NCBI GenBank assembly: GCA_964593805.1
Contig: CAZQHP010000001.1
Span: forward strand, 581,283 to 645,282
Source of the DNA: an uncultured Candidatus Saccharibacteria bacterium
Lineage (GTDB): Bacteria > Patescibacteriota > Saccharimonadia > Saccharimonadales > JBBQAJ01
DNA: 64,000 bases
Reading direction: 5' to 3'
Both the position numbers and the translations under genes were made by a program. The notes below the pieces were generated by a model, which was not told where the DNA came from, did no database searches, and saw only the letters and a program-made list of their open reading frames with translations. Each line of letters opens with the position of its first letter. Positions within the stretch are counted from its first letter, which is position 1. This document shows positions 3,260 through 36,859 of this stretch, piece by piece.

Positions 3260-3910
3260 CTAGTGAACCCGCAGGCCAGCCGCGGCTTTGAGGCGCTGGG
3301 ATAGGCTTGTGTCCTGGCCGCCGGAACAGGCGGCAGGGTCGCTGGTTTTATTGGCTTTATCGGCGTCGTCTGGCAATGCCTTAAAACGCGCGTCTAGTGC
3401 CGTGGCATCTTCCTTGCCGTAGTTTATAAGCAGCCTATCCGTGCTCTTTATTAAGCGGTCTTGCACGCTGCGGACGGTTTGGCCATTGAGCACAAAAACC
3501 AGCTTGTTGCCATCCTGCCCGTCGGCATAAACGCCGCCGTCCGTGACGACAACTTTGTTGCCGAGCGTATAGCCCAGATTGGTGAAAAACTGGCTCCAGG
3601 TAACCCCGGGGGCGTGTACATGGACCAAGCCGGAGTTTTGGTCATGCATGTGCGCTCGCCCGCCCGCGTCGTCCGCGTCGTGCACGTCGCAGGAGGTTAC
3701 TTCTTCATAAAACGTAAAGCTTTTGAACTCATCCCTCTGGCCGTTTACGTACAGGGCAAAATTGGCATGATAGTGCACGTCATCACTTTCAAACGTGGCA
3801 AAACGGAAGGCAAACAACACAAACGCCCCCAGCAAAAACATCGCCAACCCAAACCAGCGCAAGCGAATACTTTTAGCTTTAGTTTTTTTAGTGCTTTTAG
3901 GCTCGTCCAT
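3260..3910 (-). CDS. Hypothetical membrane-anchored His-rich protein
   Basis: 216 aa; N-terminal TM (FGLAMFLLGAFVLFAF); His clusters HYHANF, AHMHDQNSGLVHVHAP. -10-like TAGACT lies 7 nt upstream of the ATG. Confidence 0.6.
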   Translation of the reverse strand: MDEPKSTKKTKAKSIRLRWFGLAMFLLGAFVLFAFRFATFESDDVHYHANFALYVNGQRDEFKSFTFYEEVTSCDVHDADDAGGRAHMHDQNSGLVHVHAPGVTWSQFFTNLGYTLGNKVVVTDGGVYADGQDGNKLVFVLNGQTVRSVQDRLIKSTDRLLINYGKEDATALDARFKALPDDADKANKTSDPAACSGGQDTSLSQRLKAAAGLRVH

Positions 3911-3938
3911 TGCTACCAGTCTAACATGCTAAAATAGC

Positions 3939-4184
3939 ATGATGGTTACGATTTATTCGGCTGTGTGGTGCGCGTTCTGTCATGCCGCCAAAGACTATAT
4001 GGACAAACTCGGCGTCAAGTACGTAGACAAAGACGTGGAAAAAGACCCTGCCTTCATGAGAGAGTCCGTAGACAAGTCCGGCCAAATGGGCATCCCGGTT
4101 ATAGACATAAACGGCACTATCATCGTGGGCTTTAATCGCCCGGCAATTGACCAAGCCCTAAAAGCCAACAAACTTGTCGGCTAG
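3939..4184 (+). CDS. Glutaredoxin-like (NrdH/YruB-type) thioredoxin-fold protein
   Basis: 81 aa; CxxC active site WCAFC; GIPVIDINGTIIVGF motif. Start may be the second ATG at 3942 (6 nt after TAAAAT). Confidence 0.8.
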   Translation: MMVTIYSAVWCAFCHAAKDYMDKLGVKYVDKDVEKDPAFMRESVDKSGQMGIPVIDINGTIIVGFNRPAIDQALKANKLVG

Positions 4185-25134: not shown

Positions 25135-25641
25135 ATGAAAAAAGGCAAGGTGCCGGTTATAGTAGTTTCGTCCGACGACAGGTCGGGCTCGATTGAATTA
25201 CAGAAAATGATTCGACTGGCGAGTGAAGCGATTGCTCCTATTTTTGATTATTTTCAGCCCGACGCACAGGAATTTCACGCTGGCGTGTTTGATGGGGCTA
25301 GCGCTGGCATGACGCATAACCAGAGGGCTTGCATTGCCTCCGGAAGAATTATGCTTGAAGAAACTGTTGGGAGAATCAAGACGGTTGCTGTGGATAAAGC
25401 ACTGCGGGGCGCCAATCTGGGTTCAATCATCGTATCTGCATTAGAGGGCGTGGCTTCCGAAAGAGGCATATCTGATTTGGTTGTCGTTGAGCCGCTGCCA
25501 GGCGCCGTGGGCTTTTTTGAAGCGCTCGGCTACACCCCCCAATATTCTAGTAGCGGCAACCGGGTTGACCGCATGACAAAAACGCTTGACGCTTCAGCTG
25601 TGCCATTGCACGCGGTAAAATTAAGCGGCCAGTCAACCTAG
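25135..25641 (+). CDS. GNAT family N-acetyltransferase
   Basis: VAVDKALRGANLGSIIVSALE (acetyl-CoA loop R-x-x-G-x-G/A-like) and FFEALGY. Confidence 0.7.
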   Translation: MKKGKVPVIVVSSDDRSGSIELQKMIRLASEAIAPIFDYFQPDAQEFHAGVFDGASAGMTHNQRACIASGRIMLEETVGRIKTVAVDKALRGANLGSIIVSALEGVASERGISDLVVVEPLPGAVGFFEALGYTPQYSSSGNRVDRMTKTLDASAVPLHAVKLSGQST

Positions 25642-25673
25642 TCCAGCCTGAAGTGCTAGAATTAATTGGTCGT

Positions 25674-25709
25674 GGAGAGGTGGCCGAGTGGCTTAAGGCG
25701 CAGTCTTGG
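25674..25709 (+). pseudogene. Orphan 5' half of a tRNA-Ser, truncated inside the anticodon loop
   Basis: GGAGAGGTGGCCGAGTGGCTTAAGGCGCAGTCTTGG matches the first 36 nt of the intact tRNA-Ser (26011) at 28/36 positions. No complementary anticodon stem, T-arm or acceptor follows. Confidence 0.6.
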
Positions 25710-25764
25710 CCACCGCCTAAAGGCGGGGTCCCGCCATAGGCGGGAAAAGGCGTATATTGTAAAT

Positions 25765-26010
25765 ATGTTTTACGTTTATGTTATCCAGAGCATTCCGAAA
25801 GGCCGTTATTATATAGGCAGTACGAAAAAGGTAGACGCGCGGCTTAAAAGTCATAATAGTGGTGCGAACAGATCAACAAAGCCATATCGTCCATGGAGAA
25901 TTGTGCACACCGAAGAATTGCCGGATAAAACATCGGCGCTTATTCGTGAGCTGCAGATAAAATCCTATAAAGGTGGTCGTGCGTTTAAAGCATTGATACA
26001 ATCTTCATAG
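25765..26010 (+). CDS. GIY-YIG nuclease superfamily protein (YhbQ/UPF0213-like, URI domain)
   Basis: 81 aa; FYVYVIQS...GRYYIGST..V.ARLKSHNSG...YRPWRIVHTEE...ALIRELQIK. ATG is 6 nt after TATATT. The upstream part of the track ORF is tRNA-fragment read-through. Confidence 0.85.
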   Translation: MFYVYVIQSIPKGRYYIGSTKKVDARLKSHNSGANRSTKPYRPWRIVHTEELPDKTSALIRELQIKSYKGGRAFKALIQSS

Positions 26011-26102
26011 GGAAGAGTGTCCGAGTGGCTGAAGGAGCACGCTTGGAAAGCGTGTATGCGTCGCAAGACGTATCGCGGGTTCGAATCCCGCCTCTTCCGC
26101 CA
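26011..26102 (+). tRNA. tRNA-Ser (anticodon GGA), class II, CCA encoded
   Basis: Acceptor GGAAGAG/CTCTTCC, D-arm, anticodon arm CACGC-TTGGAAA-GCGTG, long variable arm, T-arm GCGGGTTCGAATCCCGC. Confidence 0.9.
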
Positions 26103-26133
26103 GATGTGGTTCTTTCGAACTCAACAGAGGTAG

Positions 26134-26157
26134 GGACCTGGTCAATCGACCAGGTCC
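26134..26157 (+). terminator. 10-bp GC hairpin downstream of tRNA-Ser (possible terminator)
   Basis: GGACCTGGTC-AATC-GACCAGGTCC followed by TCTTCGTT. The T tract is weak. Confidence 0.4.
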
Positions 26158-26645
26158 TCTTCGTTGGTAGGCGGAGCTGGTACTTCCTCCATGATCGTGG
26201 TTCCTCGTTTACATACCCATTGACGCGCCGAAGGCGCGCTACTTCAACCCACTAGGCCGCTTGTCCAAGCGGCGAGGCCGGTGCTGACCGGAGGTAGATG
26301 TCGGAGATCGTGTTGTCGATTCCACGGCATCCCCTACAACTACACCTACCCGCCATCACCAGGTCAGTCCATCTTCTCCAGCGCGGTCGCTGCTGACATT
26401 CTCAGTCAGACCTCGAACAGCCCACTCCTATCGGGCATCAACATCCAGCAGAGCTCGTGTGGGGAACCGCCATCGGACGTCTCGATTGCCGAGAGTGGGG
26501 CTGCTGACATCGGGCCCGATCGCTTCTACGTCGGTCTGCGCGGCCAATGGTACCGGTACTACGGCGAGAGCACGTACCGCACCTGGACGATCTCGAGCCC
26601 CGCGCTTCGTGGGAGTCAGTTCCACCAGCCGGCTGAACGGTTGTG

Positions 26646-26678
26646 GCGGGTTCGAAAGGTGGAGCAGGCTCTCCGCCA
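26646..26678 (+). repeat. Degenerate direct repeat of the tRNA-Ser 3' end
   Basis: GCGGGTTCGAA is an exact 11-mer shared with the tRNA T-arm. Then CTC-TCCGCCAG versus CTCTTCCGCCAG. The T-stem 3' strand is replaced. Confidence 0.55.
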
Positions 26679-26745
26679 GGTGCTCACCATTCGATCTTGA
26701 GCCTCATGGTCGAAAGATGACAAGTCATTTCCTGGAACAAGCCGC

Positions 26746-35950: not shown

Positions 35951-36859
35951 ATGAAAAATCGTTACCGTAAAAAGTCTGACGCTGCACATCGCTACAGCGA
36001 TGTGAGTGCTAGGTATTCATCTACAGAGATACTTGTAGCATTGCATGCGGACAAGCTACCTCCTCCAGTAGCTATTGATAGGCTTGAAAGAACAGATAGA
36101 AGTGGTTTAGTTGCAGCGGCTGAACTATCTGTCGAGCAAGCAGTTACGGCTACTTCATTTGAAAAAGCGGATCCTTGGATAAGCCGAGCTAAAACAATGT
36201 ACGAAAAAGTCGCTCGCACCGATGCTACACAAAGTGGTTGTGATGAATTTTCAGCAAAATCACTTTTTGCACTTTCACAACTACCTTTGGTTGCTTATTT
36301 GGCCTTATTTGGCAAACTACCTCCCCCGGCTTTGATTAAGCCAGTATTTAAATCCTCGGTAGAGGTTGCTGCGAAAATAAATATCGCAACTAGCCGAGAT
36401 ACTAACCCAGACTACAGACATAGGAAGGGCTGCGCTGGTGTACTTGCAGAGGCCGGAGTAATATTGTTGGGTCAACGATACGCCATAAACGACATTGGTG
36501 ATGGCTCTTGGTTACCTATTCATTCTCTACATAGCGAAGATAATAAAAACCGACAACATCACTCTGGCGAAAACCGTTCTTGGGATGTTACTTTTTTTAC
36601 ACAATTAGGTGAGGAACCGCAAAAAGACTACCTAGTGCAGGTAAAAAACAAGGAAGGTGGGGCGACTCATAAGTACGCCGACGGAGATGCAGACGGTATC
36701 ACGAGAGTTCATTTTCACCCCCAATTGACATTTAGATCTGAGCGTGGCCATGGTCTTTCAAATACAGTTCACGAATTTGTGTCCGAAGCACAGGGTGATA
36801 CTGCTGCTTCGCGCGCCTTAGATGAACGAACTGGTATGTTACTCGAAATCTTGGGTTGA
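35951..36859 (+). CDS. Hypothetical protein, weak PD-(D/E)xK-like motif
   Basis: 302 aa; ...VLAEAGV...RSWDVTFFTQL...DYLVQVKNKEG. ATG is 6 nt after TGTTAGTAT. Confidence 0.5.
   Translation: MKNRYRKKSDAAHRYSDVSARYSSTEILVALHADKLPPPVAIDRLERTDRSGLVAAAELSVEQAVTATSFEKADPWISRAKTMYEKVARTDATQSGCDEFSAKSLFALSQLPLVAYLALFGKLPPPALIKPVFKSSVEVAAKINIATSRDTNPDYRHRKGCAGVLAEAGVILLGQRYAINDIGDGSWLPIHSLHSEDNKNRQHHSGENRSWDVTFFTQLGEEPQKDYLVQVKNKEGGATHKYADGDADGITRVHFHPQLTFRSERGHGLSNTVHEFVSEAQGDTAASRALDERTGMLLEILG

Follow-up and report, generated by a model that had tools for sequence, protein, structure and literature searches.

How a small nuclease gene came to lie between half a tRNA gene and a complete copy of that gene, and what has kept it there, is the question raised by a 64-kb stretch of DNA (64,000 nucleotides, hereafter the window) from an uncultured Saccharibacteria bacterium. 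Comparing its sequence with related loci, we lean towards the view that positions 25657-26166 are a tRNA-Ser(GGA) transcription unit hosting a long-lived, nuclease-driven selfish cassette of a widespread family, which would regenerate an intact tRNA. The unit reads in the following order:

25657..25662, + strand: -10-like hexamer TAGAAT, 11 nt 5' of the tRNA half; probable native tRNA-Ser promoter, which would now drive the whole unit
25674..25709, + strand: positions 1-36 of tRNA-Ser(GGA), kept as a relic (5' strands of the acceptor and anticodon stems, the D-arm, and the anticodon loop as far as the GG of GGA)
25710..25745, + strand: twin-hairpin module (TH), 36 nt, inserted between GG and A of the anticodon of the relic copy
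25710-25728, + strand: hp1 of TH, CC-A-CCGCC/GGCGGGG, 7 bp plus a bulged A
25729-25745, + strand: hp2 of TH, TCCCGCC/GGCGGGA
25746..25764, + strand: post-hairpin remnant of the anticodon arm (3' side of the loop and stem; AAAGGCGTATAT, 25746-25757), then an A/T-rich spacer to the ATG
25765..26010, + strand: GIY-YIG nuclease gene, 81 aa, predicted bare UPF0213/Slx1-type catalytic domain; its stop codon TAG abuts tRNA +1
26011..26102, + strand: intact tRNA-Ser(GGA), the working copy (ARAGORN; Rfam 55.9 bits)
26122..26166, + strand: strong stem-loop 3' of the tRNA, possible end of the transcription unit, without a clear U tract

The open reading frame (ORF) occupies 246 of the 301 nt that separate the tRNA half from the intact tRNA. 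All coordinates given in an earlier note on this DNA were confirmed, including the junction of the TAG (26008-26010) with tRNA +1 (26011) and the hairpins CCGCC-TAAA-GGCGG (25713-25726) and CCCGCC-ATA-GGCGGG (25730-25744).

The 81-aa protein matches PF01541 over residues 1-67 (E=6.7e-17; score 62 bits, curated cut-off 22.6), and residues Y5, Y16, G18, R26, H30, N31 and E62 are invariant in an alignment of 31 sequences (113 homologues were collected). The AF2 model (pLDDT 93.5) comprises a three-stranded sheet with helices. Profile comparison with the PDB placed 1zg2 at 1.5e-13, with the UPF0213 entries 1zg2 and 1ywl spanning 1e-13 to 3e-10, SLX1 at about 1e-6 and I-TevI at 4.5e-3. Similarly, Foldseek returned query TM-scores (TMq) of about 0.70 for Slx1 (30-35% identity) and 0.54 for I-TevI, and of 0.59 for UvrC at E>0.2. 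By sequence and by fold, the protein is closer to UPF0213 (YhbQ-like) and SLX1 than to I-TevI or UvrC. Neither Pfam nor the AF2 model revealed a DNA-binding or other second domain in the 81 aa beyond the Pfam match, and the protein is predicted to be a bare Slx1/UPF0213-like nuclease domain. NCBIfam and PADLOC offered no meaningful family for it, and no relatives were found on viral contigs. A second GIY-like tblastn match in the window (36479-36673, near tRNA-Leu) was weak, had no Pfam support and was dropped.

The upstream half (25674-25709) is identical to the intact tRNA (26011-26046) at 28 of 36 positions, as previously counted, and the runner-up 36-mer against the 5' 36 nt of tRNA-Ser(GGA), on both strands of the whole 64-kb window, reaches 21/36. 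In L024, the closest syntenic relative, the tRNA-Ser(GGA) agrees with the relic half at 33/36 positions, and in L011 at 32/36; Leu(CAA), the other class II tRNA of the window, agrees at only 19/36. The mean identity of the relic half is 25.9 for Ser(GGA), 18.2 for Ser(TGA) and 16.3 for Tyr. Because this profile favours Ser(GGA) over Leu(CAA), Ser(TGA) and Tyr, the relic is specifically the 5' part of a Ser(GGA) gene, and the similarity is not of a merely generic class II kind. No tRNA was detected in 25674-25764 by ARAGORN or by Rfam covariance models, even at E<=10; a complete tRNA there would have refuted the earlier note.

The break does fall between GG and A of the anticodon, as the earlier note had placed it, but the homology does not simply end there: tRNA-like sequence returns after the 36-nt TH insert. 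This return is weak in the window (AAAGGCGTATAT against AAAGCGTGTATG, where about 10 of 13 columns agree in the alignment with tRNA 26047-26058) and clear in relatives, where it continues for 8-26 nt, up to the T-stem in L008 and L009. Comparison with the relic and with relatives revealed compensated changes in the acceptor and D stems of the working tRNA-Ser(GGA), and the acceptor strand of the relic mismatches the tRNA 3' strand in the window. We infer that the insertion in the window is old, such that the relic would hold the ancestral sequence and the working tRNA would since have changed with compensation, the hairpin and the ORF remaining intact.

The TH sequence at 25710-25745 folds as two abutted stems (-23.6 kcal/mol) and belongs to a module of 34-45 nt that is conserved as CCACCGCC..GGCGGGG-TCCCGCC..GGCGGGA, its stems showing compensatory changes. 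Since loops of variable length prevent a MAFFT alignment of the hp2 3' strand, covariation was read from per-sequence folds. Across 81 loci, 31 contain TH, with 40 copies in total, each within a truncated tRNA copy; the 64-kb window has a single copy, and none was seen outside tRNA copies beside GIY genes in the window and the related loci examined. Hairpins lie in loops (anticodon 34-36, after A14, T-loop after G57) or replace the D, anticodon or T arm, and those of Bacteroidota replace an arm instead of inserting. Insertion of TH is precise and without target duplication, and its asymmetric form keeps one constant orientation relative to the tRNA. Apparent reverse-oriented inserts in L059 and L080 were rejected: in its D-loop form the module is a palindrome made up of palindromes, which the pattern matches on both strands.

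Excision of TH in silico restored a complete tRNA in none of the 40 copies. The post-hairpin piece closes the interrupted arm with at least 5 bp in 27/40, a modest difference from the 38% of mismatched controls. A count meant to reveal RNA-level pairing gave 24 G.T versus 34 A.C at stem positions, with no G.T excess; it is noisy, as tRNA arms were collected along with the hairpins. Extra single hairpins occur in the D-loops of relic copies (L028, L037, L039, L070), and L051, L004 and L066 carry several hairpins per copy. No T tract lies 3' of the twin hairpins in the window. The twin hairpins are a conserved hallmark of the family and not incidental. The hairpin is probably the cis element that the structure-specific nuclease would recognise.

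The MacB/ABC/tRNA-Ser(GGA) locus is filled in seven Saccharibacteria sequences (the window, L001, L005, L011, L013, L024 and L025), empty in L083 and L084, and reduced to a hairpin relic without the ORF in L081. By ABC-ATPase identity the empty loci nest among the filled ones, a presence/absence polymorphism of the nuclease gene at one conserved site (ABC/tRNA-Ser(GGA)). In the filled allele the hairpin breaks one tRNA copy and an intact copy remains beside the gene. An identical arrangement in all relatives, which would have spoken against an insertion, was not found; some relatives have an empty site, one has only a relic, and copies occur at many further tRNAs. TH lies in the anticodon in the window, L001, L005, L013 and L024, and in the D-loop in L011 and L025, and these two placements at one tRNA-Ser gene appear to be independent events. 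Between L001 and L005 the first, second and third codon positions of the GIY gene are identical at 63, 65 and 37 of 78 codons, the half-tRNA at 36/36 and the hairpin at 35/36 positions, with spacers at random level. This pattern indicates purifying selection on the GIY-YIG ORF, and conservation of half-tRNA and hairpin in relatives while synonymous sites are saturated. Inheritance at this locus is broadly vertical.

Our survey covered 80 related loci in Patescibacteria, Bacteroidota, Omnitrophota and Ignavibacteria, with 87 homologous 80-aa GIY-YIG genes. A same-strand tRNA starts -40 to +30 nt from the stop codon, or ends no more than 100 nt upstream, in 74 of the 87, and most of the genes have a partial copy of the adjoining tRNA on their other flank. 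Judged against random segments, a significant copy of the downstream tRNA precedes the ATG in 45/57 cases (a perfect 36-nt repeat of positions 1-36 in 9), so that partial tRNA copies systematically flank the small GIY-YIG ORFs of this family, the point on which the earlier note had called for a survey. Ser, Tyr, Thr, Pro, Glu and Gly tRNA genes of several phyla share this architecture, in which two overlapping copies of a single tRNA, one of them intact and the other hairpin-bearing, always enclose the nuclease gene. In Patescibacteria and Omnitrophota the hairpin-bearing copy is truncated at its end next to the nuclease gene, and in most Bacteroidota it is full length except for a D-arm replaced by the hairpin. 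A mirror layout (intact tRNA, GIY, hairpin-bearing copy) is found in Bacteroidota and others. Second copies in Bacteroidota retain the acceptor, anticodon and T arms, with one compensated acceptor pair in that of L016. As a side observation, tRNA-Pro copies with a replaced D-arm carry a tRNA annotation.

The stop codon frequently falls inside the downstream tRNA (-15, -10, -25 nt). In L036, three stacked Thr units accompany two Tyr units, the Thr(TGT) stack has hairpins but no ORF between them, and hairpins of the Thr and Tyr genes, 600 nt apart, are 34/35 identical. Tandem arrays that are 99-100% identical, truncated GIY copies and stacked relics also occur. GIY copies at different tRNAs of one genome are only 40-65% identical, and GIY divergence broadly parallels that of the neighbouring housekeeping gene. 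Because of these two findings and the lack of viral relatives among those searched, most copies appear to be old and vertically inherited, which would also fit a domesticated function.

The TATATT at 25753-25758, proposed earlier as a -10 element before the ATG, found no support, since the promoter scan calls none there on the + strand. In the empty sites of L083 and L084, TATAAT/TATGAT lies at the same distance from tRNA +1 as TAGAAT does from the half in the window, and the filled loci of L013 and L024 have TATAAT 5' of their tRNA half. TAGAAT is not called in the consensus promoter scan because it has no good -35. The same scan found no + strand promoter-like site between the half and the tRNA, in a region where promoter and terminator scans are uninformative. 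The stem-loop at 26122-26166 is strong as an RNA fold (-31.8 kcal/mol, z = -4.7, 0/200 shuffles as good), and the terminator scan made no call there. With a native-type -10 before the half, no internal + strand promoter-like site and a strong hairpin after the tRNA, a GIY-tRNA co-transcript is plausible.

In the selfish-cassette reading, the nuclease would break or nick tRNA-gene DNA at structure-prone loop positions, and recombinational repair would copy the cassette together with part of the tRNA. The host would retain one working tRNA and the cassette would acquire a strong tRNA promoter; the hairpin would mark and disrupt the site in the non-functional copy, and RNase P would release the tRNA from the co-transcript. 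Slx1 cuts branched and stem-loop DNA, and loop or arm targets with a hairpin cis element are a plausible fit for that reason. Homing by this gene is something we infer for an 81-aa catalytic domain whose lack of a DNA-binding domain sets it apart from the site-specific homing endonucleases known so far, and against the reading as a whole the intact tRNA beside the gene still carries the presumed target. The earlier note had seen in this locus the footprint of an insertion or duplication; the wedged nuclease gene does fit the comparative data, but many relatives keep a half that is identical to the working tRNA and not decaying. Such halves, with the compensated acceptor pair of L016, could point to an RNA-level function rather than a footprint.

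An RNA-level function is central to an alternative that we regard as unlikely, in which the unit is a domesticated module. The half-tRNA and twin hairpin would then be a structured leader (a trailer in the mirror layout) controlling stability, processing or translation of the nuclease mRNA and tRNA, the nuclease would have a host function such as resolving structures at heavily transcribed tRNA genes, and the duplication, arising once or rarely, would be kept by selection. Vertical inheritance at the Saccharibacteria locus, purifying selection on the ORF, the near-identity of half and hairpin between L001 and L005 despite saturated synonymous sites and spacers, and the arms kept in Bacteroidota, including the pair in L016, all suit this picture. 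A stop codon within the downstream tRNA is also a possible control point, because RNase P cleavage and full-length translation would there be mutually exclusive. It is harder to reconcile with the empty sites and relic at one locus, with truncated genes, stacked relics and near-identical tandem arrays, or with the further hairpins accumulating in relic copies. In the window, moreover, the relic has lost its pairing with the 3' half of the tRNA although ORF and hairpin persist, and the noisy stem count shows no G.U excess. We consider it quite unlikely that the GC hairpins are themselves the mobile entity, as miniature elements entering tRNA-gene loops and mobilised in trans by a transposase-like GIY-YIG protein, with tRNA duplications and ORF position as by-products surviving where a working tRNA remains. 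The ORF-less Thr(TGT) stacks of L036 with their near-copy at the Tyr gene, single D-loop hairpins added to four relics, several hairpins per copy at three other loci and precise insertion without target duplication would agree with this. However, no hairpin was seen away from GIY-adjacent tRNA copies in the window and loci examined, the asymmetric form is always oriented the same way with respect to the tRNA, arms are replaced rather than entered in Bacteroidota, and we know of no GIY-YIG transposase of such a kind.

Other readings fare worse. Islands classically integrate at tRNA genes and come to be flanked by partial tRNA repeats, but an integrase-type island or prophage scar with a duplicated attachment site is very improbable: the repeat encloses only about 300 bp with one 81-aa nuclease gene, no integrase or other tyrosine or serine recombinase ORF lies between or beside the repeats, the repeated part is the tRNA 5' and not the usual 3' end, and the same tiny unit occurs in more than 70 loci, so this reading is already contradicted. 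A 5' half followed by GC-rich sequence is reminiscent of split tRNA genes, and the upstream half could in principle be a real exon joined by cis or trans splicing, as with a group I intron or archaeal-type halves. The break at 35/36 in the anticodon is where Patescibacteria carry group I introns (PMC13011429). This is hardly credible here, since a complete tRNA follows, no Rfam ribozyme, intron or other match besides the intact tRNA occurs in 25500-26300 at E<=10, excision rebuilds a tRNA in 0/40 hairpin-bearing copies, and the relic acceptor mismatches the 3' strand, which contradicts splicing at this locus. It would be just as hard to credit a chance similarity next to unrelated terminator hairpins of the upstream acetyltransferase gene: the hairpins do begin about 70 nt past the GNAT stop codon, but 28/36 exceeds anything else in the window (at most 21/36), different phyla conserve the hairpin sequence whatever the upstream gene, and the missing T tract likewise contradicts it.

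The selfish-cassette reading has partial counterparts among known systems. Short GC-rich palindromes that are recognised as folded DNA and insert precisely without long target duplications are familiar from IS200/IS605 ends, REP/RAYT and the mobile GC clusters of yeast mitochondria. Those elements depend on HUH (Y1) transposases or unknown enzymes, are dispersed through the genome and do not target tRNA loops. Unlike IS200/IS605 or REP/RAYT, the present unit has no HUH (Y1) gene, its only ORF being the GIY-YIG gene. SLX1 and UPF0213 give the best sequence and fold matches to that protein, although Slx1 acts together with Slx4 and contains a RING domain, unlike the bare domain of the window. 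No link of UPF0213 to tRNA genes or hairpin modules was found in the literature searched.

SegB, a free-standing GIY-YIG homing endonuclease from the tRNA cluster of phages T4 and T6, cleaves within tRNA-containing sequence and drives both preferential inheritance and, through microhomology that the 5' end of the tRNA shares with the 3' end of segB, the formation of 718-bp tandem tRNA-Tyr/segB repeats in T6 (PMC2330249, PMC13096335). The present loci also have a GIY-YIG gene among tRNA genes, and their ORF/tRNA fusion points and tRNA-GIY arrays mirror the T6 repeats. SegB is larger and phage-encoded, with a DNA-binding part, whereas here an 81-aa bare domain resides in cellular chromosomes with no viral relatives found; hairpin-marked partial tRNA copies, the feature here, are not described for SegB loci. 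Group I introns in tRNA anticodon loops of Patescibacteria, some with homing endonuclease genes of HNH, LAGLIDADG or PD-(D/E)XK but not GIY-YIG type, share the host phylum and position 35/36 with our unit (PMC13011429). The unit differs in having no ribozyme match and in restoring tRNA function through duplication of part of the tRNA, presumably together with RNase P, rather than through splicing; the intron study does not mention a nuclease/partial-tRNA arrangement. In the 'fractured genes' described in PMC2677866, a free-standing, selfish endonuclease gene likewise lies in the gap between two halves of a broken host gene; function is restored there by split inteins, and here DNA duplication would rebuild the whole tRNA gene. 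No description of the GIY-YIG cassette/partial-tRNA arrangement was found in the literature searched.

A bolder proposal, which we put forward tentatively, is that these loci represent a new DNA-remodelling element. Its 80-aa structure-specific GIY-YIG nuclease would recognise folded tRNA-gene DNA and its own hairpin, install the hairpin at tRNA loops and force a templated partial duplication that rebuilds the tRNA, thus residing permanently in essential tRNA units without splicing, integrase or classical transposase; in a variant, the hairpin-bearing copies would be functional RNA handles coupling nuclease expression to RNase P processing. If the selfish-cassette reading holds, essential tRNA genes of genome-reduced Patescibacteria, of Bacteroidota and of other phyla host a long-lived selfish nuclease cassette that would spare the cell by restoring the tRNA in the DNA itself, not by splicing, and would exploit the promoter of the tRNA and its processing by RNase P. 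A link of the SegB type between GIY-YIG nucleases and tRNA-gene amplification would then extend from phages to cellular chromosomes, and the widespread, so far functionless UPF0213/YhbQ-like GIY-YIG family would gain a genomic context and a testable substrate in the loops of tRNA genes and in a defined hairpin of 35 nt. The reading would also account for the tRNA fragments and the odd 'tRNA' annotations of these genomes. The relic halves, in turn, would preserve ancestral tRNA sequence and could be used as molecular fossils.

By sequence comparison, the window locus belongs to a conserved family of GIY-YIG cassettes housed in tRNA genes. The observation made in the earlier note, of a 5' tRNA-Ser half matching the first 36 nt of the intact tRNA at 28/36 positions and of an ORF whose stop TAG touches tRNA position +1, was confirmed. 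Its interpretation as the footprint of a homing or insertion event was borne out in part: an origin by insertion or duplication linked to this nuclease family is well supported by the comparisons, and the unit today may be either selfish or domesticated. The elements of the locus are as follows.

25657-25662: -10-like TAGAAT, 11 nt upstream of the relic.
25674-25709: relic, 5' part of tRNA-Ser(GGA).
25710-25745: twin-hairpin module, the same as in relatives.
25765-26010, + strand: GIY-YIG ORF, 81 aa, PF01541 (E=7e-17).
26011-26102: intact tRNA-Ser(GGA).
26122-26166: strong stem-loop after the tRNA (z = -4.7).

When the tRNA 36-mer was scanned across both strands of the window, the runner-up to the relic reached 21/36. 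The relic matches the tRNA-Ser(GGA) of L024, the closest syntenic relative, at 33/36 positions and Leu(CAA), the other class II tRNA of the window, at 19/36; its mean identity was highest to Ser(GGA), lower to other Ser isoacceptors and lowest to Tyr. ARAGORN and Rfam each called a single tRNA at the locus, Ser(GGA) at 26011-26102, and none within 25674-25764, even at E≤10. The relic, at 33/36 to L024, is close to the ancestral sequence; the working tRNA is altered in its acceptor (GGAAGAG/CTCTTCC) and D stems, with compensation. Upkeep of identity between half and tRNA has lapsed in the window, where hairpin and ORF are still consensus-like. The start of the ORF was set at the ATG (25765) by alignment with homologues, which ruled out an upstream TTG. 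A GNAT acetyltransferase gene (25135-25641) separates the ABC ATPase gene from the tRNA unit; it is missing from that position in L024, where there are only ~170 nt.

A protein search returned 113 homologues, mostly from Patescibacteria, and 80 genomic loci encoding relatives (numbered with L) were fetched. A same-strand tRNA starts between -40 and +30 nt from the stop codon in 57/87 homologous ORFs and ends ≤100 nt upstream in 28/87; one or other placement applies to 74, and most of the other 13 are at contig ends or 60-250 nt from a tRNA. Ser(GGA) is the commonest partner, followed by Tyr(GTA), Pro, other Ser, Glu, Thr and Gly. Many ORFs extend into the tRNA; their stop is often a TAG formed by tRNA positions 13-15, and the C-termini then read, for example, ...GEVA. 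To detect partial copies, the 160 nt before each ATG were compared with the downstream tRNA, using random segments of the same locus as control. An upstream copy above the random level was found in 45/57 cases and a perfect 36-nt copy of positions 1-36 at nine loci (Ser: L001, L005, L008, L009, L013, L024, L034 and L064; Tyr: L046), a clear positive for the survey of tRNA-flanked GIY-YIG ORFs proposed earlier. The upstream fragment is unlike the adjacent tRNA in some loci (L014, L023). In an Uhrbacteria tRNA cluster adjoining a GIY locus, ARAGORN also called a tRNA with a four-base anticodon (aaca; L041:6060-6132).

Homology had been described as stopping inside the anticodon. In relatives it does not: the upstream copy goes on through a 34-45-nt module and then resumes as tRNA sequence (AAAGCG... 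in Ser, TAAATC... in Tyr) for 8-26 nt before the ATG, reaching the T-stem 5' strand in L008/L009; in the window this remnant, AAAGGCGTATAT, weakly matches tRNA 26047-26058. The module consists of hp1, CC-A-CCGCC/loop/GGCGGGG, directly abutting hp2, T(C/G/T)CCGCC/loop/GGCGG(G/C/A)A. We found 40 modules in 31/81 loci, with stem pairing preserved by two-sided changes (CCGCA/TGCGG, CCGCT/AGCGG, CCGCG/CGCGG, GCCGCC/GGCGGC, TCCGCC/GGCGGA, CCTGC/GCAGG). Insertion points are tRNA loop positions (caret): within the anticodon (Ser GG^A, Tyr G^TA, Thr-TGT TG^T), in the D-loop behind position 13-14, there as a symmetric variant CCACCGCC..GGCGGGG/CCCCGC..GCGGTGG, and in the T-loop (GGTTCG^AATCC). Whole tRNA arms are replaced by single hairpins of this type in Bacteroidota and some other groups, most commonly CCCCGCC-N3-4-GGCGGGG for the D-arm in a second copy of tRNA-Pro. 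The 64-kb window holds one module copy, and all other matches to the module core, whether in the loci or in control loci totalling 480 kb, were without hairpin flanks; the module is specific to these places. Twin and nested single folds are thermodynamically close, the nested fold being preferred in the symmetric D-loop form. Removing the twin hairpin in silico restored a detectable tRNA in 0/40 cases, so the hairpin is no intervening sequence within a working tRNA.

Two mirror layouts were observed. Type A, as in the window, runs from the relic 5' part with hairpin through a short remnant and the GIY gene to the intact tRNA; Type B (L067, L078 and nearly all Bacteroidota tRNA-Pro loci) runs from the intact tRNA through the gene, a short remnant and the hairpin to a tRNA 3' part. 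In both, two overlapping copies of one tRNA flank the gene; one of them, and only one, is intact, and the hairpin-bearing copy is not a working tRNA. ARAGORN calls D-arm-replaced (CCCCGCC..GGCGGGG hairpin) tRNA-Pro copies as ordinary tRNA genes (L026:3146-3949, L016:4236-4313, L053, L057, L074, L076), and tRNA-Pro is probably overcounted in Bacteroidota genome annotations. Its 97-nt 'tRNA-Ser(tga)' at L067:4252-4348 is, read by sequence, a hairpin-bearing partial tRNA-Tyr copy; the 87-nt 'tRNA-Phe(aaa)' at L048:4253-4339 likewise appears to be a hairpin-bearing partial copy, judged by the sequence after the ORF. The intact tRNA-Tyr beside the L067 cassette (3906-3991) is unusual in its T-loop (GGTGCAAATCC), and its acceptor stem differs from that of the adjoining relic; here too, as at the window locus, the relic retains the ancestral sequence from which the working tRNA has diverged.

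The divergent MacB/ABC-ATPase and tRNA-Ser(GGA) locus is common to Saccharibacteria relatives, and a search with the ABC ATPase gave four more (66-69% identity). The uninterrupted tRNA-Ser alleles that the earlier note had proposed to seek by synteny were found in L083 and L084, with promoter and tRNA and nothing between. L081 lacks the ORF and retains 'cttga CCACCGCCacaGGCG aaaaag' ~60 nt upstream of the tRNA; L082 lacks the cassette and carries an unrelated, GC-rich, structured-looking 296-nt insert that separates the ABC ATPase gene from tRNA-Ser(GGA) (L082:3266-3560, reverse strand). By ABC-ATPase identity, empty loci nest among filled ones. At tRNA-Ser(GGA) the hairpin sits in the anticodon in the window, L001, L005, L013 and L024 and in the D-loop in L011 and L025; these are distinct events. 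Units also stack: L036 has three successive Thr(TGT) units with no ORF between, of which the upstream one, the most decayed, is the oldest, and two Tyr units in succession; between Thr and Tyr the twin hairpins agree at 34/35 positions. Bacteroidota arrays (L026, L053, L057) repeat tRNA-plus-GIY units at 99-100% identity, and truncated GIY copies occur among the loci.

Between L001 and L005, whose ABC ATPases are 88% identical, the GIY genes agree at 63, 65 and 37 of 78 first, second and third codon positions, and leader, spacer and downstream flank match no better than random (16-18 of 30-32). The half-tRNA is identical (36/36) and equals the 5' part of the working tRNA, and the hairpin matches at 35/36; L008 and L009 gave the same pattern. 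Purifying selection therefore acts on the ORF. The hairpin is also maintained, and the half is held identical to the tRNA by either selection or gene conversion. Within one genome, GIY copies at different tRNAs share 40-65% identity, and the nearest GIY relative sits at a same-amino-acid tRNA in 48/75 cases; the lineages are old and partly target-specific.

The family profile matches UPF0213 proteins (1zg2, 1ywl) and SLX1 in the PDB. A confident AF2 model (pLDDT 93.5) superposed best in Foldseek on Slx1 nuclease domains (TMq ~0.70, 30-35% identity), with the I-TevI catalytic domain (0.54) and UvrC poorer, and the 81-aa protein lacks any second domain. As a structure-specific nuclease, SLX1 acts on branched and stem-loop DNA, and we propose on this basis that folded tRNA-gene DNA and GC hairpins may be what the predicted nuclease sees.

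The closest functional parallel is phage SegB, a GIY-YIG enzyme encoded in the tRNA cluster of T4/T6. It cuts tRNA-containing DNA, skews inheritance and gives rise to tandem repeats of tRNA-Tyr plus segB through microhomology of the tRNA 5' end with the segB 3' end (PMC2330249; PMC13096335). The differences are substantial. Unlike SegB, the window-type protein is a bare 80-aa domain, and the cassettes are chromosomal, distributed across phyla, carry the hairpin module and follow the rule that one tRNA copy is intact and the other hairpin-marked; no viral relatives of the window protein were found. Group I introns of Patescibacteria tRNAs lie at 35/36 (PMC13011429); the insertion site is shared, the mechanism is not. 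A full-text literature search of incomplete coverage returned no account of the GIY/tRNA arrangement; the family is apparently undescribed so far, and an earlier description elsewhere is possible.

Empty sites have TATAAT/TATGAT before the tRNA at the place equivalent to the window's TAGAAT, and filled relatives have TATAAT upstream of their half. A promoter scan of the window region called no + strand site from hairpin to tRNA. Together with the stem-loop after the tRNA, this points to a single transcript, likely started by the promoter that belongs to the tRNA and reading across relic, hairpin and ORF into the tRNA, which RNase P would free. In L005, L006, L008, L009, L023, L025 and others, the last 15 nt of the ORF overlap the tRNA, and inside tRNA-Pro copies the stop is U8-A9-G10. 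With the stop inside the tRNA, an RNase P cut at +1 would strip it and leave a non-stop message, which could act as an inbuilt brake on nuclease expression; for the window ORF, the stop codon would form the message's extreme 3' end. The ~640 nt from tRNA-Ser to the end of the G6PD gene (26103-26745) gave no Rfam match and no Pfam-supported ORF; they are GC-rich (58-64% vs 50% for the window) and open with the very stable stem-loop at 26122-26166.
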